This document shows, in pieces, positions 4,587-43,581 of a stretch of DNA of 45,119 bases. The stretch comes from Dhillonvirus LM40P1: sequence record OZ035746.1; one strand, written 5' to 3'. Made by a program: the position numbers and the translations under genes. Under the pieces are notes generated by a model. It saw nothing but the letters and a program-made list of their open reading frames with translations. It searched no databases and had not been told where the DNA came from. Position 1 is the stretch's first letter. Each line of letters opens with the position of its first letter.

Positions 4587-4887
4587 ATACGCAGCAGTCG
4601 GATTGATTCTCGGCCTTGTAATTGGGTTCTGGCAAGGTGACAACTATCGTGCTGGCGTGGTGGCGGAGGCGGCGCAGGAAGCGCAAGCCAAAGCCCAACG
4701 GCAGCAAACTAAGGTAATCCATGAGTCGGTACAGAAAGAGCAGGCCCGCGAAGTGGAGTTCCGCACAGTTGAGAAAGAGGTGATTAAATATGTCACGCGT
4801 CCTGATCGCGATAATTGTAAGTTTGATGCTGACCGCGTGCGGATCAAGCAACGTGCCGTTGATGCCGCTAACGGAATCAGCAATTAA
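4579..4887 (+). CDS. i-spanin (Rz-like), putative
   Basis: GTG start with AAGGGG RBS; N-terminal TM helix AAVGLILGLVIGFW followed by a charged coiled-coil-like region; overlaps a lipoprotein ORF in another frame. Confidence 0.5.
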   Translation: MIKYAAVGLILGLVIGFWQGDNYRAGVVAEAAQEAQAKAQRQQTKVIHESVQKEQAREVEFRTVEKEVIKYVTRPDRDNCKFDADRVRIKQRAVDAANGISN

Positions 4888-5020
4888 GCCGCCGTGTAAG
4901 TTTGAGTCGCCATCGGAAGATCCGGACGAAGATTTAGCGATTGATGTGCGAAATATGAAATGCGGGGCGGAGTTAAGGGCACAAGTGCTGGATTTGCAGA
5001 AATTAATTAAGGGGCCGTAA
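4790..5020 (+). CDS. o-spanin (Rz1-like outer-membrane lipoprotein), putative
   Basis: Signal peptide with lipobox LTAC (MSRVLIAIIVSLMLTACGSS); starts inside the 3' end of the Rz-like ORF in a different frame (overlapped spanin architecture); GAGGTGA RBS. Confidence 0.55.
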   Translation: MSRVLIAIIVSLMLTACGSSNVPLMPLTESAIKPPCKFESPSEDPDEDLAIDVRNMKCGAELRAQVLDLQKLIKGP

Positions 5021-5033: not shown

Positions 5034-5795
5034 TTAGCGCGGAATACCGCAGATTTCGTTTAGTGTCTTCACGTCAAGCGCTACTGCCGTTGACTTCTTC
5101 TCTTCCTGCGGGATGAACTGTTTCACTTCAGGCCATGCCTTAATAAGTTTGGTGTCTGTAGTGTACTTATTCAGAGTACCCATAACTGACAATTTAAACT
5201 CATCGTATTTAGCACGTAAATCGCGGCGCGCCTTGTCGTTCTTATCCAGACGTTTGCAAAATTCATGCTCTGCCGGGTAATCTGCACGACCGCGAGGCTT
5301 GTAGATCGGCACTTGCTCACCTTCCGCGTTAATTTCCACCAGCGCCGTAAGTAGCGCAGTTTCAAACCCAGGTACGATTTCGCCAATGTCCGGGGCCATC
5401 GAGTTATTGTAGCGGTCTTCCCAGTAGCCTCGGTGACAGCGGCTGCTGTAGTTATCACCGCTCAATGACAGTGTGCGGATGTTACCACCCATGTTGACTT
5501 CGAACGTTGCATCGTACACAGCACCAATGCCGTGGGGCATGTCCTTGTTATGGCTGAAGGTTGCACGGCTGGCGTACACGCTTATGCTAAACATGCCGTT
5601 ATTTGTGTCTTGATAGCTGCGCATCATTTTCTGCAACCCAACGAAGCTGGTAACACCTTTCGGCATCTGATCCAGAGTGATATCCAGCGCCAGGTCGCGC
5701 GATTCGGTCATTAACTTTTTGGCCTGCTTCGTGATTTCGTGGCCTGCCAGGATGTTAGCCAGGATTTGCTTTTTAATGTCTTTAGTCAGTCTCAT
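5034..5795 (-). CDS. hypothetical protein (antisense gene inside the head module)
   Basis: ORF 5034..5858; start placed at ATG 5795 (MRLTKDIKK) with GAGGAAA RBS because the promoter at 5826-5854 overlaps the longer ORF; no recognisable domain. Confidence 0.6.
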   Translation of the reverse strand: MRLTKDIKKQILANILAGHEITKQAKKLMTESRDLALDITLDQMPKGVTSFVGLQKMMRSYQDTNNGMFSISVYASRATFSHNKDMPHGIGAVYDATFEVNMGGNIRTLSLSGDNYSSRCHRGYWEDRYNNSMAPDIGEIVPGFETALLTALVEINAEGEQVPIYKPRGRADYPAEHEFCKRLDKNDKARRDLRAKYDEFKLSVMGTLNKYTTDTKLIKAWPEVKQFIPQEEKKSTAVALDVKTLNEICGIPR

Positions 5796-5825
5796 TGTTG
5801 TTTCCTCGTTTGTTGGTGTGCAACC

Positions 5826-11451: not shown

Positions 11452-11771
11452 AGCGGGACAGCGGGACGTCCCGTTTTTATCCCGCTGTCCCTCCCAGCCA
11501 AAAACTGCATACCTATTCAGAAATACTGCATAAAACCAAAACGGGACAAAAACGGGACAAGCAGGACGTCCCGCCTCAAAAGTGCATATCTATGCAGTTT
11601 TCGTGCATAAAACGAACGGGACAAAAACGGGACAAATTGCAAGCGGGACAGAGCGGGACGTCCCGCCGTCCCTGCCAGAGCTGCCGCGGGTTTCAGCCGA
11701 TCGGGACAGGCGGGACAAAGCCCAGTCTTTCAGACTAGACGGGGGTCAATGGCCCCCTCCGTCTGAGACTG
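11452..11771. repeat. non-coding repeat module, copy A (about 1.5 units): CGGGACA(A) repeats, GGGACGTCCC palindromes, TGCATAAAAC boxes, long imperfect hairpin
   Basis: About 11 CGGGAC(A/G) copies, several in ACGGGACAAAAACGGGACAA doublets at 10-bp phase; GGGACGTCCCG at 11463, 11564, 11655; hairpin-forming CAGTCTTTCAGACTAGACGGGGG...GCCCCCTCCGTCTGAGACTG at 11722-11771. The 11603-11771 part is roughly 80% identical to 40066-40244. Confidence 0.7.
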
Positions 11772-11838
11772 AATAAGGTTGGTTGCAAAATGACTGATAC
11801 AATACAAACGGCAACTTGCATAAAAAGGGGACTGCATA

Positions 11839-21691: not shown

Positions 21692-21916
21692 TTACCACTC
21701 CCGTGATTTAACTGATACCGTACCAGAGAAGTTACCGTCTGAATCTGCCGCCAAACCGGTGAATCGCATGTCAATGTCTCCGGCAGCGACCTTTTGCCCG
21801 TCAACATAACGCAACATGCAGCTTCCCGCAACGTAGGTAACGCAATCGCCATTATGACGCTCAACAGCACAACCAGACAGCATAGCAACGACTAAAATAC
21901 TTAATAAAGTTTTCAT
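21692..21916 (-). CDS. small lipoprotein (74 aa), candidate superinfection-exclusion protein (Cor/Llp-like)
   Basis: ORF 21692..21961; ATG 21916 with AAGGAGA RBS; signal peptide and lipobox MKTLLSILVVAMLSGC; own promoter; sits between the J and tail fiber genes on the opposite strand. Confidence 0.5.
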   Translation of the reverse strand: MKTLLSILVVAMLSGCAVERHNGDCVTYVAGSCMLRYVDGQKVAAGDIDMRFTGLAADSDGNFSGTVSVKSREW

Positions 21917-21945: not shown

Positions 21946-21974
21946 AATATAGTGCAACCAATACGTGATTGCAA
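21946..21974 (-). promoter_or_regulatory. sigma70-like promoter TTGCAA-N17-TATATT (recurring family)
   Basis: Minus-strand reading: TTGCAA (21974..21969), 17-nt spacer containing ATTGGTTGCA, TATATT (21951..21946); about 30 nt upstream of the lipoprotein ATG. Confidence 0.5.
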
Positions 21975-26596: not shown

Positions 26597-27062
26597 GTAG
26601 TTCTCCTTCGCTCATTATCTTGATTTGTGCGCTGCCGTTTGGTGGCGCTTCTTCAAAGATTATCAATTGCTGACACTTGTTGTTGCTCGGTCCAACCTTA
26701 CCGGTGACGGCATGGATAAACCTGATTCGCCAGTCCAGCAATATAATCAGGTTGGCGGTTTTCCGCGCCAGTTTGGCCCACTTCGTGGTCGTGTCCTGGT
26801 TAAGCAGCATTACCGTTTTGCGACCCTGCGATGCGCAAGTCACCCACGGCAGCGGATCCGAATACGGCGGATTGCACCATTTCCACCCGTTTAGCTCTGA
26901 CCAGTCCGCATCAAGCGCGCTGTGCTCTTTCGTGAAGTAGCGCGGTAGCAGATGGTTGTGGTCACTAGCCGCCATGTCATAGCGGAATTTAAACGCCTTG
27001 CGCAGTGGCTTAAATAAAGCTGGCGGCGTGCGCCAGCTATCCTTTTGCTCATTCTCCGTCAT
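26553..27062 (-). CDS. DNA N6-adenine methyltransferase (phage Dam-like)
   Basis: ORF 26553..27284; start placed at ATG 27062 (MTENEQKDSWRTPP...); catalytic NPPY motif in WKWCNPPYSD. Confidence 0.7.
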   Translation of the reverse strand: MTENEQKDSWRTPPALFKPLRKAFKFRYDMAASDHNHLLPRYFTKEHSALDADWSELNGWKWCNPPYSDPLPWVTCASQGRKTVMLLNQDTTTKWAKLARKTANLIILLDWRIRFIHAVTGKVGPSNNKCQQLIIFEEAPPNGSAQIKIMSEGELHEYLSRRSQSARRG

Positions 27063-27513
27063 GCTGCGGGTCCAGTGCGTAGAGTGGGATTTGTTTAGCG
27101 CTTTCCCACAGGCGTTTAATCCGCTCCTGTTCGCCGCTACCCATAGGGCGAATATCGTTGCTGTAGTTGCCGTTGGTTGTGTCGCGCCACGCAATAAGAA
27201 CCAGGTCTTTACGGTCAATCTTCGTTGTGCGGCCTTTCGGGCGGACGTACTCTTCTGCGCGTTTGCATTGCTCGCGCAGGGCATCGGCGGTTATCCTGGT
27301 GAGCGATACGGATGTTGTGTACCCGGTGCGCTGCATAATGGTGGTTAGCTCGCCCAGCAGTTCGAAGCGTTCTTCTAACTCCAGCAATTGCTTGTTGGTG
27401 TCCTGGAATTTTTTATACATATCATCGGCGTGGCTACGTGCTTCTTCCGCTTTCTCGCGCGCCTCAATACACTGTGCTGCCCAATACGCTTTTTCTTCTT
27501 GTAAAATTTTCAT
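27049..27513 (-). CDS. hypothetical protein (coiled-coil N-terminus)
   Basis: 154-aa ORF; GGAGA RBS; TAATG overlap with the upstream gene. Confidence 0.45.
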   Translation of the reverse strand: MKILQEEKAYWAAQCIEAREKAEEARSHADDMYKKFQDTNKQLLELEERFELLGELTTIMQRTGYTTSVSLTRITADALREQCKRAEEYVRPKGRTTKIDRKDLVLIAWRDTTNGNYSNDIRPMGSGEQERIKRLWESAKQIPLYALDPQHDGE

Positions 27514-27755
27514 TAGTTAATCTCCGTCATGCGAATTTCTTTGCGCGGTATAAATTTGCCGTTCATTTCAACCCAGCAAGTGCCATAGCGCCACTGGGTG
27601 TTACGGCCTGTTTGTTCGGGGTAGACGGCCTGGCATTCATATTTATTGGCCTGGTAGATCCACACCGTCGGCAGCAGGAAACAAAAGAATAAGAACAACG
27701 CCATCCATACCCAAAAACGTAAGTCACCGTCGTAATCAAAAAAGAATCGTTTCAT
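27513..27755 (-). CDS. small membrane protein (80 aa)
   Basis: GAGGA RBS; hydrophobic helix FWVWMALFLFFCFLLPTVWIY. Confidence 0.45.
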   Translation of the reverse strand: MKRFFFDYDGDLRFWVWMALFLFFCFLLPTVWIYQANKYECQAVYPEQTGRNTQWRYGTCWVEMNGKFIPRKEIRMTEIN

Positions 27756-27772
27756 CGTTAAATCCTCATATT

Positions 27773-27803
27773 AAAAAAAAAGGGCGTTCCCTTCGGAACA
27801 CCC
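27773..27803 (-). terminator. intrinsic terminator (minus strand) between promoter and gene
   Basis: Minus-strand RNA GGGUGUUCC-GAAG-GGAACGCCC (9-bp stem including a G-U pair) followed by nine U (plus-strand A-run 27773-27781). Confidence 0.65.
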
Positions 27804-27805
27804 TC

Positions 27806-27834
27806 AATATAATGCAACCAATCTCGCAATGCAA
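27806..27834 (-). promoter_or_regulatory. sigma70-like promoter TTGCAT-N17-TATATT (recurring family)
   Basis: Minus-strand reading: TTGCAT (27834..27829), spacer containing ATTGGTTGCA, TATATT (27811..27806); predicted start falls inside the 5' arm of the terminator stem. Confidence 0.5.
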
Positions 27835-27839
27835 CCAAT

Positions 27840-36579: not shown

Positions 36580-37083
36580 TTAGTCTTCCAGTTCGAAATA
36601 AGTTTCGACAATTTCTTTCAAGTCGTGGTGGAAGTCTTCCACGTCTTCGTCGTCCAGTTTAGCGACGGACTTGATTTCGTACGACTCCAGCAGGTCGTCA
36701 AATTCGTCGTTAGCATCGTCATCGTCGCCGCCTGCAATGATTGCCGCGTATTGTGCAATTTCATCGCGCATTTCTTTCAGCGGATCGGCGTCTTTCTTAG
36801 CCTTCCCTTTGCCCTTGCCTTTGGCTGGCTTTTCTTCCGGTTCGTCTTCGTCGTCGTCATCTTCTACAACTTCTTTTTTCGCCTTGCCCTTAGCCGTGGA
36901 CTTCTTAGCTGGCTTCTTATCTTCCTGCTCGTCATCTTCGTCTTTGGCTTCTTCTTTCTTAGCCTTAGACGGTTTCTTATCTTCCTGCTTACCAACGGCA
37001 GCGCCCTGGGTTTCGTAATGTTTAGCGATGGTTTCCAGTGCTACTACGCCGCGAGTAATCAGATTCAGGATTTGCTCAAACAT
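36580..37083 (-). CDS. acidic low-complexity protein (167 aa), first gene of the early minus-strand operon
   Basis: ORF 36580..37320; ATG 37083 with GGAGA RBS, about 40 nt downstream of a TTGACA-N18-TATTAT promoter; Lys-rich and Asp/Glu-rich blocks; very acidic C-terminus. Confidence 0.5.
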   Translation of the reverse strand: MFEQILNLITRGVVALETIAKHYETQGAAVGKQEDKKPSKAKKEEAKDEDDEQEDKKPAKKSTAKGKAKKEVVEDDDDEDEPEEKPAKGKGKGKAKKDADPLKEMRDEIAQYAAIIAGGDDDDANDEFDDLLESYEIKSVAKLDDEDVEDFHHDLKEIVETYFELED

Positions 37084-37130
37084 GGTGTGTCTCCGTTTAG
37101 TTAAAAGTGAATGTCGTTTCGACGAGGTGA

Positions 37131-37160
37131 ATAATAGATTGGTTGCAGGAGGGGTGTCAA
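37131..37160 (-). promoter_or_regulatory. strong sigma70-like early promoter (TTGACA-N18-TATTAT)
   Basis: Minus-strand reading: TTGACA (37160..37155), 18-nt spacer containing CTGCAACCAATC, TATTAT (37136..37131). Confidence 0.5.
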
Positions 37161-37333: not shown

Positions 37334-37663
37334 ATGAATATTAATGACGCAATCGAGATGTTAACTAATGCTGTGAGCGGTGAAACCAGCAGGTCCTGGG
37401 CTTACACAGATGCCGTTGGTGAGGTGCTATTTGAGATCGAACGCCTGCGCACAGTCGAGAAAGCGCTTACCGCCAAACTTGAATTGCTGAACGGTACGGC
37501 AGCGAGCAAGCTGCAAAAGCATAACGAAGAAATGGAAGAATACAAAAAGCAGGTTATCCAATTGCGCAATGAGGGTAAGTCCTGGGCAATGATTGCCGAG
37601 CTAACAGGCATTAATCAAAGCACTGTACGCTCCTGGGTACGCAATGCTAAAACCGCTAAGTAA
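37334..37663 (+). CDS. HTH DNA-binding protein (putative transcriptional regulator)
   Basis: 109-aa ORF with GGAGA RBS; C-terminal HTH-like SWAMIAELTGINQSTVRSWVRNAK. Confidence 0.45.
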   Translation: MNINDAIEMLTNAVSGETSRSWAYTDAVGEVLFEIERLRTVEKALTAKLELLNGTAASKLQKHNEEMEEYKKQVIQLRNEGKSWAMIAELTGINQSTVRSWVRNAKTAK

Positions 37664-37675
37664 GGACTTGAGACG

Positions 37676-39940
37676 ATGAGAAATATAGAATTTGCGATCA
37701 CACCTCCGGCAAAAAGGGGTGAATCAGCGGTAGCCCATAACCAATCCATGACTACCGCCGAGTTTTTCGAGTTTATGCTGGATGCGCCGGTAGTATCGTC
37801 AGTTTGCATTAACGGTACTGAAGATAAAAAAGAATATGCGCGACGTAAGCGTAAAGGCGACGGCATTGTGGCTACAACCGCCGATGGCACGCGTAAAAAG
37901 ACTGGCGTGGTTAGCCGCTCGATCCTGTTCTTCGACCTGGACCGTGCTGACAACCGCACACTTACCCGCTGCCGCAGGGCTTTCCGTAAGTCCGGCCTGG
38001 AATATGTCTACCACACCACCACCGGCGACCGCCACCCGTTGAAAGACGGCAAGCGCTGTGTGCGTTTCCTGGTGCTGACAAACAAGCCAGTTCCGGCGGA
38101 AGACTTGGGTCGCGCGCAGGCTGCACTGCTTGAGCAACTGGGTCTTACCGACGCGGGCTTTGATGACTGCTCGAAAGACACAAACCGCCTTATGTACCTG
38201 CCCCACCAGCAGGCTAAGGTCGAGTGTCATGAGGGTGAACGCGCTAACGTGCGTCGTCTGCTTCGCCTGGCTGACAAGATGGGTATTGAGCAGGAAACGT
38301 TTCGCCGTGAACTGGTGCAGGGCGACGACGAGCAGATGAACGGCATCCTCGACTGGTGTTTCCAGGCTGGTTTTGAGCCGTTACCATCCGGGCGCGGTTA
38401 TGAAGTACCGTGCCCAAACGAACATCTGCACTCTGGTGAAGGGTCTACCGCTATCATGCTTAAGGATGGCGAGATTCGTTTCAAATGTATGCACACCGGC
38501 AACGGATGCTGTTCTGAACTGAACAAACACCAACACCTGGCGCTGCGAATGATTGGTATCCCGGATATTTATAACGTGGAACCTCACAACATGTCGCGCA
38601 AACAGATCTCGGCAATCCTGCCCGGACTGGACGATGAAGAAGTGGACGCGCAGTATGAGCACATGGTCGATCTGGTTGGCGAAGGGGAGGATTATGCGTC
38701 CTGTACTGACGCAGACCTGGAAGACGAACCAACGGCACTGTTCTCTAAACACGACCCGATCATCGAAGGTCTGATTAACTTTAAATCGACCTGGTACGCA
38801 GCGGGTGAGTCGAACATTGGTAAGTCCTTCTTCGTCCTGGGTCAGATGGCTGCCGTTGCCGCTGGCATCCCGTTCGGCGGCGCGAAGGTCGTCCAGTCCC
38901 ATTGCTTCTACTTCGATGCGGAAGGTGGCGAGGCGTCCCACCAGCGTAAAGAAGCGTTGCAGATTAAATATGAGCACGACCTGGACAAGCTGCACATTAT
39001 CGACCTTCAGGCACGCGGCTGGGATATTACGAGCAAGTCCGGCCTGCGTGAAGTCATCAGCTTTATCAACCGCACCGCGGATGGGGAACCGGTCGGCCTG
39101 GTGGCGTTCGACTCCCTTAACCAGACCGTGGCCCTGCGCTCGGCAGATGCCAAACCGTTCGACGAGAACAACGCAAGCGATATGGGTGAGATTGTCAAAG
39201 CGCTGAAGTCCATTGCGGAAAACACAGGAGGCAGTGCGGGCGTCATTCACCACCCGGCGAAGGGTGCAAACGGCAGCCGATCCCCGCGTGGATCCGGTGC
39301 GCTACATGGCGCGGTGGATTCTGCATTCTTCCTGGAACAGCCAGACGAGAATCAGCCAGGCCAGCTTAACCTCTATCATGAGAAAGCCCGTAACGGCGTG
39401 AAACAGGGTCCGCGCGGCTTCGTGCTACTGAAGTGCAAAGTGTCCATTAACGAGCGCAAGTCCGACTCGTTCGAAGCACACCAGTCTACCAATCCGGGGC
39501 CAGACTTCGGCGATGTGGTTGCCGGTTGGGACGTAAAACCGATCCAGGCCACACCGCGCGACGAGACTCTGTACCTTGTTCCGGTAGCTCTGGCCCCGTT
39601 TGCTATCGAACAGGCTAAGGCGGCAGGCAAGCAGGCTGTTAAGGAAGAAAACCCCGCCGGTCCGCGCAATGAAAAAGAGAAAGTGCTTTACGCAGCGCTC
39701 GAAGCGTTGATGGAAGAGAATCCGGGACACCATGGCTTCAGCAAATCGGCAATCGTCCGCAAAGCCGGACTGGCGAAAGGTGGCACATCGACGAAGCCAA
39801 TAGACGATATGCGTGAGCGCGGAATCATCGGCTTTTACAAAGACCCTGACACCGGGGCCATTTACGGGTCGTCGAATCTGGTTATCAATTCACAAATACC
39901 TATGCAATTGACGGCGACGGATGATGATTTGAAAGATTAA
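37676..39940 (+). CDS. DNA primase-helicase (AEP-type primase-like N-terminus plus RecA/DnaB-like ATPase)
   Basis: 754-aa ORF; N-terminal FFDLDRAD motif; ATPase Walker A GESNIGKS and Walker B-like VAFDSL. Confidence 0.65.
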   Translation: MRNIEFAITPPAKRGESAVAHNQSMTTAEFFEFMLDAPVVSSVCINGTEDKKEYARRKRKGDGIVATTADGTRKKTGVVSRSILFFDLDRADNRTLTRCRRAFRKSGLEYVYHTTTGDRHPLKDGKRCVRFLVLTNKPVPAEDLGRAQAALLEQLGLTDAGFDDCSKDTNRLMYLPHQQAKVECHEGERANVRRLLRLADKMGIEQETFRRELVQGDDEQMNGILDWCFQAGFEPLPSGRGYEVPCPNEHLHSGEGSTAIMLKDGEIRFKCMHTGNGCCSELNKHQHLALRMIGIPDIYNVEPHNMSRKQISAILPGLDDEEVDAQYEHMVDLVGEGEDYASCTDADLEDEPTALFSKHDPIIEGLINFKSTWYAAGESNIGKSFFVLGQMAAVAAGIPFGGAKVVQSHCFYFDAEGGEASHQRKEALQIKYEHDLDKLHIIDLQARGWDITSKSGLREVISFINRTADGEPVGLVAFDSLNQTVALRSADAKPFDENNASDMGEIVKALKSIAENTGGSAGVIHHPAKGANGSRSPRGSGALHGAVDSAFFLEQPDENQPGQLNLYHEKARNGVKQGPRGFVLLKCKVSINERKSDSFEAHQSTNPGPDFGDVVAGWDVKPIQATPRDETLYLVPVALAPFAIEQAKAAGKQAVKEENPAGPRNEKEKVLYAALEALMEENPGHHGFSKSAIVRKAGLAKGGTSTKPIDDMRERGIIGFYKDPDTGAIYGSSNLVINSQIPMQLTATDDDLKD

Positions 39941-39945
39941 TTTTT

Positions 39946-40028
39946 GCGCGCATTGGTTGCCAATATGGTTAATTTGTGCGCGCATTGGTTGCCAGATTGG
40001 GCATTAAATCTATATCGCATTGGTTGCC
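39946..40028 (+). repeat. three direct iterons GCGCGCATTGGTTGCC(A)
   Basis: 39946-39962 and 39978-39994 are identical 17-mers; a shorter third copy TCGCATTGGTTGCC lies at 40015-40028; spacing about 32 and 35 bp. Confidence 0.65.
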
Positions 40029-40065
40029 GTGTAGTGCTAAATAAGTGAATAGTTATGCAAAATAA

Positions 40066-40244
40066 GTGCATAAAACAAACGGGACAAAAACGGGACAAAC
40101 GACAAACGGGACAAAACGGGACGTCCCGCCGTCCCCCTCAGGAGTGGCGCGGGTTTGAGGCAAACGGGACAAGCGGGACAGACCACAGTCTTTCAGACTA
40201 GACGGGGGGTATTGTCCCCCCTCCGTCTGAGACTGCATAAAATC
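40066..40244. repeat. non-coding repeat module, copy B
   Basis: GTGCATAAAACAAACGGGACAAAAACGGGACAA..., GGGACGTCCCGCC at 40119-40131, hairpin CAGTCTTTCAGACTAGACGGGGGG...CCCCCCTCCGTCTGAGACTG; same order and orientation as 11603-11771. Confidence 0.7.
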
Positions 40245-40394
40245 TCTGGTTGCATAATCAACGGCAGCATAGTGAAAAATGCGGCGGGGGTAGATCTCGG
40301 CAACCAATGCGAGTTGAAGAGTGGAGAGTGAAAAATGCAGTTTGCAATTGCAACTCATAGCGATCAGCATTTTCATGCGCGTGATTAATATTGG

Positions 40395-40423
40395 TTGCAT
40401 TCGTCCTGCCAGGGTGTTAGATT
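40395..40423 (+). promoter_or_regulatory. promoter of the recurring family, plus orientation (TTGCAT-N17-TAGATT)
   Basis: ATTGGTTGCAT at 40390-40400 and TAGATTGGTTGCA at 40418-40430; about 30 nt upstream of the ATG at 40452. Confidence 0.4.
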
Positions 40424-40451
40424 GGTTGCACACCAACATGAGGACTGAACG

Positions 40452-40757
40452 ATGAGAGCATTAATCTGGAATTACACAATGGCTGTGGCGAAGCTGTACG
40501 AAGCGAAGCACACAAACGGCAACGCAGACGACGCGCGCCAGGCTGTCATCCTGGCCCAGCAGGGAATCATGAACGCGTTCGACGATATGTTTGCCAGCCT
40601 GGACGAACTGGAACCGCTGCGCGTGGCAATCTGCGAATATGCGATGGCATTTGCCCGTGAACGCCTGGCATACCGGTTTGGTATCGGGGAAACGGCAGTG
40701 GCTAACATCGCCCGCATTCAGGCCCAGCGTGAGCTGCACGCCATACTCGCGAAATAA
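40452..40757 (+). CDS. hypothetical protein (101 aa)
   Basis: GAGGA RBS; first gene after the repeat region. Confidence 0.45.
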   Translation: MRALIWNYTMAVAKLYEAKHTNGNADDARQAVILAQQGIMNAFDDMFASLDELEPLRVAICEYAMAFARERLAYRFGIGETAVANIARIQAQRELHAILAK

Positions 40758-40766
40758 GGGGCCAAA

Positions 40767-41036
40767 ATGACACGCAGACGCGCTCAATGGCTTTCATGGC
40801 ACATTCCCCTACATAGCATCCGTTTATGGGCGCAGAACGCGATTGAGGGCGATTCTGTGTTCTGGAGCTATCGGGATGACGTCAAGCCGCTGACGCAGAC
40901 CAGAAAGCTGCACCAGTTCATGAACGAACACGGACTGCCGGTGAAAACATCATTGCAACCAATCGGCATCCGTATTACATTACGCCGTAAGCCAATCGTT
41001 GAGCAGGTTGGAAAACACAGGAGACTGACAAAATGA
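40767..41036 (+). CDS. hypothetical protein (89 aa, basic)
   Basis: AAGGGG RBS. Confidence 0.45.
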   Translation: MTRRRAQWLSWHIPLHSIRLWAQNAIEGDSVFWSYRDDVKPLTQTRKLHQFMNEHGLPVKTSLQPIGIRITLRRKPIVEQVGKHRRLTK

Positions 41037-41629
41037 AATTGATCTTCCGCCATAAACATAATGGGCGATTCCTTACCCCAATCCAGGTGCTGCCGAACTA
41101 TGTGCGCCTGCACCACGAAGCCAGCGACCGCGTATTCTGGTTTAAGAAAGCCACTCTGCCGAAATATTTGCAGGTTGTGCATCATGACGTCCGCGTCGGC
41201 GATGTGCTGAGGGATATTCGGGACGGTGCGCTGTTCGTAGTCCAGCGTGTGACTACCTTCGGCGTTGTACTGCAATGCGGAGCGATCCGACGCCGTCTAT
41301 TTTCTGTCGGCCTGGTGAACTACACTCGCGTGGGCCGGAACTATGTGCCTAAGCAGTTCAAGCGCTACGACGCCAACCAGGTGCAAGCGAAGATGGGTCG
41401 CGCCGTACACAAAATCGTCAATCGCTTTGATGCCGTGACGAACGCACAGCGCCATGCGCAGGAATACGGTGTGGGATTCATCCGGGTAGAACGAGACGGC
41501 AGTATGACGTCCATCGACCCGCGCTCGACCCAACTGAAGATAGTCGAAGTGAGCAAATGTTGCCGGGCAGAAGTTGTGCGCGACCCCGGCGGGCAAGCCT
41601 TCTGTCGCGAGTGTGCGGGTGTGATATGA
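41033..41629 (+). CDS. hypothetical protein (198 aa) with C-terminal Cys cluster
   Basis: ATGA overlap with the upstream gene; C-terminal CCRAEVVRDPGGQAFCREC. Confidence 0.45.
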   Translation: MKLIFRHKHNGRFLTPIQVLPNYVRLHHEASDRVFWFKKATLPKYLQVVHHDVRVGDVLRDIRDGALFVVQRVTTFGVVLQCGAIRRRLFSVGLVNYTRVGRNYVPKQFKRYDANQVQAKMGRAVHKIVNRFDAVTNAQRHAQEYGVGFIRVERDGSMTSIDPRSTQLKIVEVSKCCRAEVVRDPGGQAFCRECAGVI

Positions 41630-41766
41630 GCGCCGTGATTCGTGATTTGTTGATGCATAACCGCTTTGAGATTGGCGGTCGTGTATTCCGTAACTACTTC
41701 GTTGCGCGCGCCTGGGCGCGCCATATTGGCAAACCGGAGAGTGAAATTAAATGCTACACGATGTGA
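41626..41766 (+). CDS. small hypothetical protein (46 aa)
   Basis: ATG 41626 in ATGA overlap with the upstream stop; lies within ORF 41557..41766. Confidence 0.3.
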   Translation: MSAVIRDLLMHNRFEIGGRVFRNYFVARAWARHIGKPESEIKCYTM

Positions 41767-42038
41767 TGTTTTGGTTTGGTATATTCTGCGCCATATTGCT
41801 GGTTGGCGCTGTCACCCTGGTTATTGCAGTCTGGTTTATATGGCCTGCCGTTGAGGCCGTGAGCATTACCCGCATGACCTTCGCCTACTACAAGAAACAC
41901 GGCATCACGCAACATTCCAGCAGGCTTAGGGTGTGGTGGCTGTGGTATCGCGATATGCTCGGAGGCAGGCGGTTCGAGGCCATCAGGTCACACGGTTGGG
42001 AATGGCAAGGCGTAGGACGCTGGTCAATTTCAGAATAA
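41751..42038 (+). CDS. small membrane protein (95 aa)
   Basis: Two hydrophobic helices (FWFGIFCAILLVGAVTLVIAVWFIW); overlaps the upstream ORF. Confidence 0.4.
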   Translation: MLHDVMFWFGIFCAILLVGAVTLVIAVWFIWPAVEAVSITRMTFAYYKKHGITQHSSRLRVWWLWYRDMLGGRRFEAIRSHGWEWQGVGRWSISE

Positions 42039-42058
42039 TTATGCAGTCGTGATATAGT

Positions 42059-42092
42059 CCCCAGTGAGGTTTAATCTTACTGGGGCTTTTTT
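42059..42092 (+). terminator. intrinsic terminator directly before the holin gene
   Basis: CCCCAGT...ACTGGGG stem followed by TTTTTT, then ATG 42093. Confidence 0.55.
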
Positions 42093-42395
42093 ATGGAAGT
42101 TTTCCACAAATTAGATGAATGGGTAATTATCGCCGCTGCCGGGGTGGCGGGTGGCTTCGTAGGTGCGCGTATGCACCCGGAAGCTGCACAAGGACCGGTA
42201 AACTTTGTGCTGTTCGTCGTCGTTGGCTTCCTGTGTGCTGTATTTGGTGCACCAGCCATCGCCGAACTGACCGGCTTGACCAGTCAGCGCATGATCGCAG
42301 GTCTTGGATTCGTAACGGCAATCTTCTGGATGCCGATTGCGGCACGGATCCGAGAGCTAATCGCTAATGCCCGCTTTCCGGGAGGTGCCAAATGA
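42093..42395 (+). CDS. holin (putative, multi-TM)
   Basis: 100-aa protein with about three hydrophobic helices; directly upstream of a second membrane protein and the endolysin. Confidence 0.5.
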   Translation: MEVFHKLDEWVIIAAAGVAGGFVGARMHPEAAQGPVNFVLFVVVGFLCAVFGAPAIAELTGLTSQRMIAGLGFVTAIFWMPIAARIRELIANARFPGGAK

Positions 42396-42658
42396 TTTTC
42401 GGCGTCGATGTTTGTGCGTGGTTTGGCGTTATGTTCTTCCTCATCGTCGGCGTGTCGTCGCTGTACAACGTCTACGCCGCATCCGTGAATGACGGCCTTG
42501 TTGGTCGTGTGCTCTATCTCTTAACGGCAGTCTTCTGCGTGGTCGGCTTGATGCAAACCGGGCATGTGGAGAACGCCACTATCAACGCCATTTGCTGGCT
42601 GTTTGCATTGCGCACCCTGCGCAATGCTGTTTTGAAAGGTGTAAAACATGCAATTTAG
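42392..42658 (+). CDS. second holin-like membrane protein (holin or antiholin)
   Basis: 88-aa protein with two or three TM helices; ATGA overlap with the holin; overlaps the endolysin start. Confidence 0.4.
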   Translation: MIFGVDVCAWFGVMFFLIVGVSSLYNVYAASVNDGLVGRVLYLLTAVFCVVGLMQTGHVENATINAICWLFALRTLRNAVLKGVKHAI

Positions 42659-43133
42659 TGAGAATGGTTTGCGGTTTACTGCCGCATGGGAGACGTTTAG
42701 CCCGGTGCCCTACTTCGCCACGAAGAAAGAGCAGGAGCAAGGTCTTTATACCTGGGGCTTCGGTCATACGGGCACTAACCCGCCGCGCAGCATTACCCGC
42801 ACTGAGGCAATGGAACTACTGCGCAAGGATATTGCCATTGCTGAGAAGTTTGTTCAGCGCGCAATGCCGATCGGGGCGTTCAACCAGGCCCAGTACGACG
42901 CGCTTGTGGATCTGGTCTTCAACGTAGGGCCGCGTGCCATCGGGGCTAATACCGGAACTGGTCGTGCAGTTCGTGCCGGTGATATTCAGACGATCCGTGC
43001 TAAACTGCCTCAATTCCGTATGCAAGCCGGGGTTGTTGTCAAGGGTCTGGTGCGTCGCGCTAACGGACGCCTGGCACTGTTCGACGGTAAGCAGTGGGAC
43101 GTTGCCGAGCGTATCGGTCGTAATTCAGCTTAA
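42648..43133 (+). CDS. endolysin (phage lysozyme-like)
   Basis: Lysozyme-type N-terminal motif GLRFTAAWETFSPVPYF...GLYTWGFGHTG; no N-terminal TM segment; adjacent to holins. Confidence 0.75.
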   Translation: MQFSENGLRFTAAWETFSPVPYFATKKEQEQGLYTWGFGHTGTNPPRSITRTEAMELLRKDIAIAEKFVQRAMPIGAFNQAQYDALVDLVFNVGPRAIGANTGTGRAVRAGDIQTIRAKLPQFRMQAGVVVKGLVRRANGRLALFDGKQWDVAERIGRNSA

Positions 43134-43142
43134 GGGGGAGAT

Positions 43143-43550
43143 ATGTTAAAAAGTATTCTTGATCATAATGCGGACGCGCTTGACGCGTTGGCTAAAACGG
43201 GCGACGCTGGCGCGCGTCGCATCATTGCAAACACCATCAGCCATGCCGGGGTGTTTGGTGCAAGCCTTCCGGGGCCGAAGCCGGATGTGAAGGTGTCAAG
43301 CGCCACAGTAACGGTAACACCAGAGGAAGTTACAATCGGCACCCAGTCTAAGGCTACGGTGGCGGTGCAACCGGCAGGGGCGACCGATAAATCCGGCGTG
43401 TGGATTAGTGGGTCGCCAACCATCGCCACCGTTGACGCTTCGGGTAATATCGACGGCAAAACTCCCGGTTCTGTCGATATTATTTGGGTGGCTAAGGATG
43501 GAAGCGGGGTGTCGGGCCGAAAAACGGTAACTGTGGCAAACGCCGAGTAA
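43143..43550 (+). CDS. Ig-like (Big_2-type) domain protein
   Basis: GGGGGAG RBS; Ser/Thr/Val-rich beta pattern VTVTPEEVTIG...ATVAVQP...ATVDASG...TVTV; terminator downstream. Confidence 0.45.
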   Translation: MLKSILDHNADALDALAKTGDAGARRIIANTISHAGVFGASLPGPKPDVKVSSATVTVTPEEVTIGTQSKATVAVQPAGATDKSGVWISGSPTIATVDASGNIDGKTPGSVDIIWVAKDGSGVSGRKTVTVANAE

Positions 43551-43557
43551 AGAGCAA

Positions 43558-43581
43558 GCCCGCAACTATGGCGGGCTTTTT
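43558..43581 (+). terminator. intrinsic terminator
   Basis: GCCCGC-AACTATG-GCGGGC hairpin followed by TTTTT. Confidence 0.7.

Follow-up and report, generated by a model that had tools for sequence, protein, structure and literature searches.

Five small genes between the iteron region and the lysis cassette of a Dhillonvirus: a candidate early operon conserved across the genus

The window analyzed here (45,119 nt, sequence record OZ035746.1) is the complete 45-kb genome of a Dhillonvirus, an HK578-like virulent siphovirus with Escherichia coli as its host. Dhillonviruses are common coliphages that are used therapeutically, and SECphi18, HK578, and the BASEL phages Bas14–18 and Bas83–85 serve as test phages for defense systems; about a third of the Dhillonvirus genes lack a function. 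The subject of this analysis is a cluster of five consecutive open reading frames (ORFs) on the plus strand, denoted g1 to g5, which is located between a repeat and iteron region (39940–40451) and the holin-holin-endolysin cassette that starts at position 42093. g1 (40452–40757, 101 aa) and g2 (40767–41036, 89 aa) are separated by a gap of 9 nt, g2 and g3 (41033–41629, 198 aa) as well as g3 and g4 (41626–41766, 46 aa) share ATGA overlaps, and g4 and g5 (41751–42038, 95 aa) overlap by 16 nt. The coordinates, the tight spacing, and the location given for these ORFs in an initial annotation, which had been made without database searches, were exact. The segment from 39900 to 42700 matched 127 phage records in a Megablast search, essentially all of them Dhillonvirus, and the closest records were LM40P1 (98.9% identity) and phage Ioannina (97.4%).

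The initial annotation had described the five genes as lacking both a function and recognizable domains. Their function is indeed unassigned in more than 150 deposited genomes, and each of them matched a PHROG family of unknown function, with E values from 1e-33 to 1e-70. Because of these matches and of the selective constraint described below, the ORFs are far beyond chance. The lack of domains was borne out for Pfam, NCBIfam, and PADLOC, the last of which yielded no match for g1 to g5, and had to be qualified only for a weak helix-turn-helix (HTH) signal in g1. Rfam yielded no match above threshold in the region from 39800 to 42200 (one match had an E value of 0.4).

The distribution of the five genes was analyzed by tblastn against 50,697 phage records, including a Dhillonvirus set of 156 records that have a helicase-primase of at least 60% identity. 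g1 and g2 were each found in 156 records, g3 in 155, and g4 in 151, all of the Dhillonvirus type. Because they were present in 151 to 156 of the 156 Dhillonvirus records, g1 to g4 are, by this count, core to Dhillonvirus, and they are confined to the genus. g5 was found in 479 records, about 152 from Dhillonvirus, about 300 from Salmonella Jerseyvirus-like phages, and a few from Klebsiella, Erwinia, and other phages. In a codon-level comparison of nine Dhillonvirus genomes, the median ratios of nonsynonymous to synonymous substitution rates (dN/dS) were 0.40 for g1, 0.18 for g2, 0.32 for g3, 0.07 for g4, and 0.20 for g5; the corresponding values were 0.045 for the helicase-primase, 0.10 for the holin, and 0.06 for the endolysin. 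Judged by these ratios, purifying selection acts on all five ORFs, which are thus real genes. Constraint is weakest in g1 and g3, and g4 ranks with the most tightly constrained genes of the region.

The 511-bp regulatory spacer upstream of g1 (39940–40451, plus strand) harbors boxes, iterons, and a hairpin, as delineated by repeat and motif counts, as well as a candidate promoter. Three GCGCATTGGTTGCC boxes on the plus strand (39949–40029) are followed by six plus-strand CGGGACA iterons (about 40078–40180) and one inverted box (40300–40308). A candidate sigma-70 promoter was read by eye at 40394–40422 (plus strand), with the −35 element TTGCAT, a 17-nt spacer, and TGtTAGATT, and ATTGGTTGC boxes overlap its −35 element (40390) and its −10/+1 region (40421). 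A consensus promoter scan did not flag this site, the −35 element of which matches at only three of six positions. In the relatives, the counterpart of TGtTAGATT is TGcTATATT, and a promoter of the form TTGCAT-17-TGnTA(T/G)ATT is kept in 14 phages; a GAGGA ribosome-binding site lies downstream of it. The spacer layout, with six iterons, four to five forward boxes, and one inverted box, is common to 14 Dhillonvirus loci, the sole exception being Teewinot, which has eight forward boxes. At the other end of the cluster, a terminator scan revealed an intrinsic terminator (42059–42092, plus strand) that consists of a 12-bp hairpin and a T-run and ends right at the holin ATG (42093). With a folding energy of −19.6 kcal/mol (z −3.95), it is kept in sequence in 14 phages. 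Inside the cluster, the consensus scans detected no plus-strand terminator-like site and one weak promoter-like match. Because a conserved candidate promoter precedes g1, a terminator follows g5, and no internal terminator was detected, the five genes most likely form one operon that is separate from the lysis cassette.

The consensus scan also yielded a promoter-like site with an extended −10 element (TTCAGA-18-TGaTATAGT, 42029–42058, plus strand) directly 5′ of the terminator hairpin, and the TGATATAGT −10 element of this holin-proximal site is invariant in 14 phages. Such a putative promoter inside a terminator recurs in the genome, with one case at 42029–42092 (plus strand) and another at 27760–27839 (minus strand). 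In this layout, a GC-rich hairpin, a T-run, and the next ATG come immediately after the −10 element (TGATATAGT or TATATT), so that the predicted start site falls within the 5′ hairpin arm. Termination at this hairpin would be expected for transcripts that arrive from upstream (−19.6 kcal/mol), and transcripts from the local promoter would lack the full hairpin (−7.3 kcal/mol). The partial hairpin would also leave the GGGG Shine-Dalgarno-like stretch of the holin gene unpaired.

The ATTGGTTGC box is not limited to the cluster. No other 9-mer is as strongly over-represented in this genome: there are 17 copies compared to 0.56 expected, located at 37138, 39952, 39984, 40019, 40390, and 40421 on the plus strand and at 5820, 5834, 21954, 21971, 26367, 27814, 27831, 30792, 40300, 40955, and 43594 on the minus strand. 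In SM_S22, another Dhillonvirus, it is also the top 9-mer and is found at equivalent positions, and in the syntenic Guernseyvirinae phage phiEap-2 it occurs only twice and is not enriched. Two classes of promoter-like units were recognized. The first has the form ATTGGTTGCA-N7-ATTGGTTGCA(c/t)TATATT, with minus-strand copies at 21971, 26367, and 27831; the second, TTGCAT-17-TA(T/G)ATTGGTTGCACACCAAC followed by a ribosome-binding site and an ATG, occurs at 5820 (minus strand) and in front of g1. In at least five phage promoters, that of the cluster included, a box coincides with the −35, spacer, or +1 positions, and the boxes therefore look like operators for a phage-encoded DNA-binding protein that are superimposed on good sigma-70 promoters.

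Box units were found upstream of a minus-strand gene for a lipoprotein moron (MKTLLSILVVAMLSGC..., at about 21.9 kb), of a minus-strand gene or moron in the head cluster (5034–5795), and of an 80-aa ORF (27513–27755) that is followed by a homolog of the anti-defense gene anti-Tmn. In SM_S22, it is anti-Tmn itself (ORF35) that directly follows a box promoter. It appears that ATTGGTTGC probably marks a genus-specific early regulon with a putative controlling DNA-binding protein. Because the promoter class is common to the five genes, the lipoprotein moron, and the operon with the anti-Tmn homolog, we infer that the five-gene unit is probably expressed early as a part of this regulon. The box promoters would thus define a putative early regulon that includes the homolog of a validated anti-defense gene, and early genes could be picked by sequence. 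The boundaries of the operon and the box regulon are useful results in their own right, as is the recognition of empty insertion slots described below.

Two of the genes behind box promoters deserve a separate description. The small lipoprotein-like ORF at 21692–21916 (minus strand, MKTLLSILVVAMLSGCAV...) contains a lipobox, is located just before the lateral tail-fiber gene, and is a candidate superinfection-exclusion moron of the Cor/Llp type. The gene at 5034–5795 (about 253 aa) is antisense and directly follows, within the head-gene cluster, a 76-aa lipoprotein ORF (4790–5020, plus strand, MSRVLIAIIVSLMLTACGSS...) that is annotated as an Rz-like spanin in SM_S22.

The first two proteins of the cluster may both bind nucleic acid. 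g1 matches phrog_9839 (E 9e-52); its N-terminal half is variable and its C-terminus, AFARERLAYRFGIGETAV.N.ARI.AQREL, is invariant. An HTH pattern (RERLAYRFGIGETAVANIAR) spans residues 69–88 (40656–40715, plus strand), and 12 of 13 members of the g1 family have a weak match to HTH_Tnp_4 at residues 70–86, with a best E value of 0.035 and bit scores that stay under the gathering cut-off (12.7 bits for the g1 of the window, compared with a cut-off of 27). Two of the 13 members matched Cro, also below threshold (E 0.37), and the invariant RERLAYRFGIGETAV.N.AR fits the classic HTH pattern by eye. g1 would thus be a DNA-binding protein with a C-terminal HTH. The boxes that flank and overlap its promoter are conserved, and g1 is, together with the gp45-like HTH protein encoded upstream (37334–37663), the best candidate for the factor that would recognize them. 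Binding of g1 to the boxes of its own promoter could lead to autoregulation or early shut-off. The phylogenetic profile does not discriminate between the candidates: g1, the gp45-like protein, and ATTGGTTGC are all confined to Dhillonvirus, and phiEap-2 lacks all three. The iterons vary little, and no covariation with g1 types was visible.

g2 has an isoelectric point of 11.6, basic termini, and a mean column identity of 89%. Its predicted secondary structure is that of a small alpha/beta protein (helices at residues 3–24 and 41–54, strands at 30–34, 59–64, and 67–72), and the structural model, built from a shallow alignment of 10 sequences (the word-index homolog search gave 20), is a confident helix-strand-helix-hairpin domain with a predicted local distance difference test (pLDDT) score of 81 and a predicted template modeling score of 0.66. 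This strongly conserved, very basic protein probably binds nucleic acid.

g3 is the longest of the five proteins and is modular: its N-domain and its linker vary, and its C-domain (VNRFDAVTNAQRHAQEYGVGFIRVERDGSM..IDPRS) is kept better. AlphaFold2 predicted two tandem five-stranded barrels of the Tudor/SH3-like type for residues 1–102 (41033–41338, plus strand; pLDDT about 90), followed by a long helix and a poorly defined C-terminus. A helical and beta-hairpin C-domain was delineated at about residues 112–169 (41366–41539, plus strand), and a lineage-specific tail with four cysteines at residues 170–198 (41540–41626, plus strand). A profile search against 1.84 billion representative proteins gave 24 matches, all of them variants or fragments of the family, including a stand-alone two-barrel protein and stand-alone C-domains. 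A fold search of BFVD recovered only g3's own family, and neither a DUF7244 or other Pfam match nor a signal sequence was detected.

The C-terminal cysteine cluster, to which the initial annotation had drawn attention, is real and belongs to g3 (C176, C177, C191, and C194). One of its knuckles is CxxC and the other CC, and AlphaFold2 placed short strands at residues 180–183 and 189–191 (pLDDT about 50–56). One member of the g3 family matched Zn_Ribbon_TF with an E value of 0.52. Because the four cysteines are invariant in six of six tail-bearing sequences, the remainder of which are only 57–65% identical to the g3 of the window, the tail appears to be a selected, modular element, and it probably binds zinc. 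We propose that g3 is a modular adaptor in which two barrels are joined to a helical C-domain and, optionally, a zinc-ribbon-like tail, and that it might bind a protein or nucleic-acid partner, possibly the host RNA polymerase.

g4 is basic and hardly varies within the genus, with 37 of 46 residues invariant. It matches phrog_13628 and was found in 151 records at 80–96% identity; neither a Pfam or PDB match nor other detectable relatives were found. A longer version of 69 aa (start at 41557) was discarded in favor of the internal ATG, because the relatives keep only the 46-aa form. What we take to be a likeness of g4 to the wing and last helix of excisionase/HTH_17 proteins received no support from the Pfam and PDB profile searches.

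One of the five products had been described as a membrane protein. This is g5, which has one strong hydrophobic segment at residues 7–31 (41769–41843, plus strand), with a maximal 19-residue Kyte-Doolittle mean of 2.83, and a C-terminal part with a net charge of +5. g5 matches phrog_2531, and three proteins were retrieved in its word-index homolog search. In the alignment, the motif set WPxVEAxS.TR...GGR.FE..RS.GW.W.GVG.W is invariant across genera. The protein is predicted to be bitopic, with the conserved Trp/Arg-rich C-terminal domain in the cytoplasm. In the Jerseyvirus BPS11Q3, the homologous gene is located after the endolysin gene, overlaps the end of the NinH gene, and shortly precedes the terminase genes.

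The fine structure of the cluster was compared in 15 loci of relatives. It consists of a fixed backbone, g1-g2-g3-g4-g5, and of insertion slots, all of which are empty in the window. In most relatives, the g2/g3 slot is filled with a very acidic ORF of 44–50 aa (107 of 156 records) and/or a basic ORF of 50–54 aa (25 of 156). In some of them, a 56-aa ORF is present between g3 and g4, a membrane ORF of 46 aa between g4 and g5, or a 59-aa ORF (phrog_3623) upstream of g1. Slot ORFs are carried by loci L002, L003, L006, L009–L016, and L019. The region is thus an insertion hot spot with four or five slots in the relatives. Because the slot ORFs are patchy (107 and 25 of 156 records) and the backbone genes occur in 151 to 156 of 156, the slot mini-ORFs are, on distribution, better candidates for accessory counter-defense genes than the five backbone genes. 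Slots that are empty here and filled in most relatives therefore offer a better hunting ground for counter-defense than the backbone.

Also the backbone itself is mosaic. In the metagenomic phage at locus L009, the helicase-primase, the holins, and the endolysin are 98–99% identical to those of the window, whereas the values are 85% for g1, 88% for g2, 89% for g5, and only 49% for g3. Because the flanks are nearly identical and g3 is so divergent, the region must have been exchanged by recombination. In Teewinot (vB_EcoD_Teewinot, NC_073053.1, locus L018, 3501–3779), a natural deletion fuses g3 at about residue 74 to g5 at about residue 52, so that g4 is lost entirely, together with the larger part of g3 and the g5 membrane segment; the fusion peptide is also present as a database representative (P0162). 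g3 carries an internal deletion in JL1, and BF9 has a replaced or disrupted N-terminal g3 domain. Provided that the records of Teewinot, JL1, and BF9 are accurate, g3 to g5 are dispensable for laboratory propagation.

The putative HTH of g1, the basic folds that resemble nucleic-acid binders, and the Tudor-like barrels of g3 led us to favor a role in regulation or nucleic-acid handling. We propose, with a probability of about 40%, that g1 to g5 constitute a genus-core early operon that acts on nucleic acid or the transcription machinery, with g1 as a candidate binder of the boxes. The unit would start at the sigma-70-type promoter within the ATTGGTTGC boxes and end at the terminator in front of the holin gene, and its products, which are small and mostly basic, would most likely have nucleic acid or the transcription machinery as their target. 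Coding status, conservation throughout the genus, the arrangement of promoter, boxes, and terminator, and the predicted folds are the observed part of this proposal, whereas early timing, DNA binding by g1 and g2, and a contact with RNA polymerase are deduced from them. g3 would be the fast-evolving, exchangeable member of the operon, g4 an invariant partner protein of 46 residues, and g5 an inner-membrane protein with a cytoplasmic Trp/Arg-rich domain. Altogether, the cluster appears to be an ordinary early operon, probably regulatory, the genes of which had already been sequenced as hypothetical genes in a well-sampled genus. Several points weigh against this proposal. The HTH assignment of g1 derives from sub-threshold Pfam matches (E 0.035–0.1) and a pattern read by eye, and the gp45-like HTH protein is as genus-specific as g1 and could be the box binder instead. 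The relatively high dN/dS values of g1 and g3, the mosaic character of the region, with its divergent g3 in L009, and the survival of Teewinot without g3 to g5 are all what one would expect from genes for host interaction or counter-defense, and less so from an essential regulator. In addition, no transcriptome of a Dhillonvirus was found in the literature.

Some of these points favor the initial annotation, which had placed the cluster where anti-defense and host-takeover functions are typically found. On this view, at least one of the five proteins, most plausibly g3, g1, or g5, would be an early anti-defense or host-takeover factor that neutralizes an immunity system of the host or shuts off a host process. 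We regard this as possible, though somewhat unlikely. Consistent with such a factor are the promoter class, common to the lipoprotein moron and the operon with the anti-Tmn homolog, the dN/dS values of g1 and g3, which are 3–8 times those of the helicase-primase, holin, and endolysin, the swapping of g3 between near-identical phages, the dispensability of g3 to g5 in Teewinot together with the altered g3 of JL1 and BF9, and the insertion of accessory ORFs at four or five slots of the cluster. A precedent within the genus is Ksap1 of SECphi18, a 74-aa protein encoded between the methyltransferase and phosphatase genes that triggers KpAvs2 in vivo; it is present in nearly all genus members, dispensable, and unassigned in function (bioRxiv 10.1101/2024.01.31.578182). 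However, g1 to g5 occur in 97–100% of the genus, and g2 and g4 are under strong purifying selection. Accessory counter-defense genes usually have a patchy distribution, quite unlike this presence throughout the genus, so that an accessory anti-defense island is contradicted by the presence/absence comparison, and the cluster does not look like a classical one. Of the two findings that the initial annotation had held would speak against its view, conservation in nearly all relatives was observed and assigned housekeeping roles were not. Furthermore, g1 to g5 have no sequence, profile, or fold likeness to a known anti-defense protein, solved or catalogued, in searches of PHROG, Pfam, NCBIfam, and PDB, which are general and not dedicated anti-defense libraries; the PDB sequence and profile searches with the five families gave nothing below E 0.1. 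What stands of the proposed location is therefore the early promoter class, the fast evolution of g1 and g3, and the mosaic character of the region; the genus-core distribution and the lack of resemblance to known anti-defense proteins speak against it.

The published evidence from Dhillonviruses likewise points elsewhere. The anti-defense gene that was shown experimentally in the genus is anti-Tmn (ORF35 of SM_S22), reported in a study that also covers nmad5; 85 homologs were counted, and close homologs differ in activity (PMC11846954). An anti-Tmn query matched the window only at 27061–27513, within a 154-aa ORF (27049–27513, minus strand) that is 60% identical to SM_S22 ORF35 and is located downstream of the ATTGGTTGC-box promoter and the 80-aa ORF. 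Like the products of the cluster, anti-Tmn and Ksap1 are small proteins; both are specific to Dhillonvirus, and anti-Tmn of SM_S22 has the same type of box promoter. In contrast to anti-Tmn, with its 85 matches, g1 to g5 are universal, and both anti-Tmn and Ksap1 lie in the leftward early region and not at the cluster. The RAZR trigger is the portal protein (PMC13017515), SSB and the DNA polymerase are escape loci (bioRxiv 10.1101/2022.08.27.505566), and escape of HK578 from OLD maps to gp43, gp45, and gp46 (bioRxiv 10.64898/2026.07.10.737580). In the studies of SECphi18, HK578, and other Dhillonviruses that were consulted, none of the triggers and escapers, including those for Retron-Eco8 and Borvo, maps to g1–g5. 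The two remaining explanations concern the neighboring modules. That the products are accessory proteins of a replication origin, with g1 and/or g2 binding the iterons or boxes and aiding the helicase-primase or coupling replication to late expression, is suggested by the location of the cluster directly downstream of the helicase-primase gene and the conserved block of six iterons, by the putative HTH of g1, and by the very basic character of g2. Yet the replication-initiation escapers of HK578 map to gp45, gp46, and their promoter, not to the cluster, and a more natural initiator would be the gp45-like HTH protein, the gene of which is co-transcribed with that of the helicase-primase. The iteron block has a duplicate far from g1–g5, and g3 to g5 have no link to replication. 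We consider this explanation unlikely. Lysis control, with g5 (and perhaps g4) acting as an antiholin or timing factor or standing in for a missing lysis component, is in our view very unlikely. g5 is a small bitopic membrane protein encoded beside the holins in every Dhillonvirus examined, and the SH3-like barrels of g3 recall a stand-alone SH3 protein of Drexlerviridae, which is encoded upstream of the lysis cassette and has been proposed to belong to the lysis module (PMC13164509). However, the conserved terminator intervenes between g5 and the holin gene, the Jerseyvirus homolog is located elsewhere, after the endolysin gene and next to NinH, and the PHROG family of g5 is classified as of unknown function and not as lysis. 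The conserved domain of g5 is predicted to be cytoplasmic, its sequence contains neither a lipobox nor a dual-start motif, g3 has neither a signal sequence nor a DUF7244 match, and Teewinot could be isolated, and its complete genome deposited, although it lacks g3 to g5.

The proposed early operon shares features with several systems described before. In lambdoid phages, the nin-type region, and in Guernseyvirinae (Jerseyvirus, phiEap-2), clusters of small genes occupy the same place between replication and lysis genes and, like g1–g5, consist of short, tightly spaced ORFs on the same strand, some of which are dispensable. phiEap-2 is syntenic with the window (helicase-primase, small genes, two holins, endolysin), and the g5 family is also found beside NinH in a Jerseyvirus. 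Unlike these clusters, g1 to g4 have no homologs outside Dhillonvirus, and the unit has its own promoter and terminator. A protein similar to the Q antiterminator, as in late antitermination of the lambda Q type, was not found. The MotA boxes of T4, the p4 sites of phi29, and the Cro operators are likewise short phage repeats at fixed offsets from −35 and −10 elements, and here, too, a small putative HTH protein (g1) is encoded beside the densest ATTGGTTGC cluster; no homology to MotA, p4, or Cro passes any threshold, and activation or repression are both conceivable.

For g3, the Tudor-like domains of PcrA/UvrD, CarD, and Mfd that interact with RNA polymerase (PDB 5dma, 7egs, 7egt, 4l5g, and 6ac6) can be compared, with 8–17% identity. 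The barrel fold is generic, as ribosomal proteins, KOW, PsaE, FeoA, and NdhS score nearly as well, and, unlike the domains of PcrA/UvrD, CarD, and Mfd, g3 has two barrels and an unrelated C-domain. That the barrels dock on the beta lobe of the host RNA polymerase, at the site used by CarD, UvrD, PcrA, and Mfd, and, together with g1 at the ATTGGTTGC boxes, reprogram or protect transcription during the switch from early to late expression is quite unlikely; if true, it would represent a new, Dhillonvirus-specific module for host takeover, the specificity domain of which would be exchangeable and the zinc-ribbon tail optional. The Drexlerviridae SH3 protein (DUF7244, PMC13164509) resembles g3 in having an SH3-like barrel and in being encoded just upstream of the holins. 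It differs from g3, which has tandem barrels and a C-domain and is separated from the holins by g4, g5, and the terminator.

Several further features were noted elsewhere in the genome. The block of iterons and hairpin at 40066–40240 is duplicated at 11603–11776 with 85% identity. This second block is located in non-coding DNA that separates the tape-measure gene from the tail chaperone region, where four more AACGGGACA copies were found at 11540–11634, and it could represent a second origin or have another function. No spanin is evident beside the endolysin, and a long distance separates the lipoprotein ORF at 4790–5020 from the holin-endolysin cassette. Downstream of the endolysin, the next gene (43143–43550, plus strand) is a fusion, the first 49 residues of which match the 55-aa family phrog_11068, followed by a Big_2 Ig-like domain; in most relatives, the phrog_11068 counterpart is a stand-alone ORF of about 53–55 aa. 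A bidirectional terminator (43556–43578) follows the fusion gene. Lastly, an extremely charged ORF rich in Lys, Glu, and Asp (36580–37090, minus strand), with runs such as KKEEAKDEDDEQEDKKPAKK and DDDDEDEPEE, is located beside the gene for the gp45-like HTH protein and oriented divergently from it.

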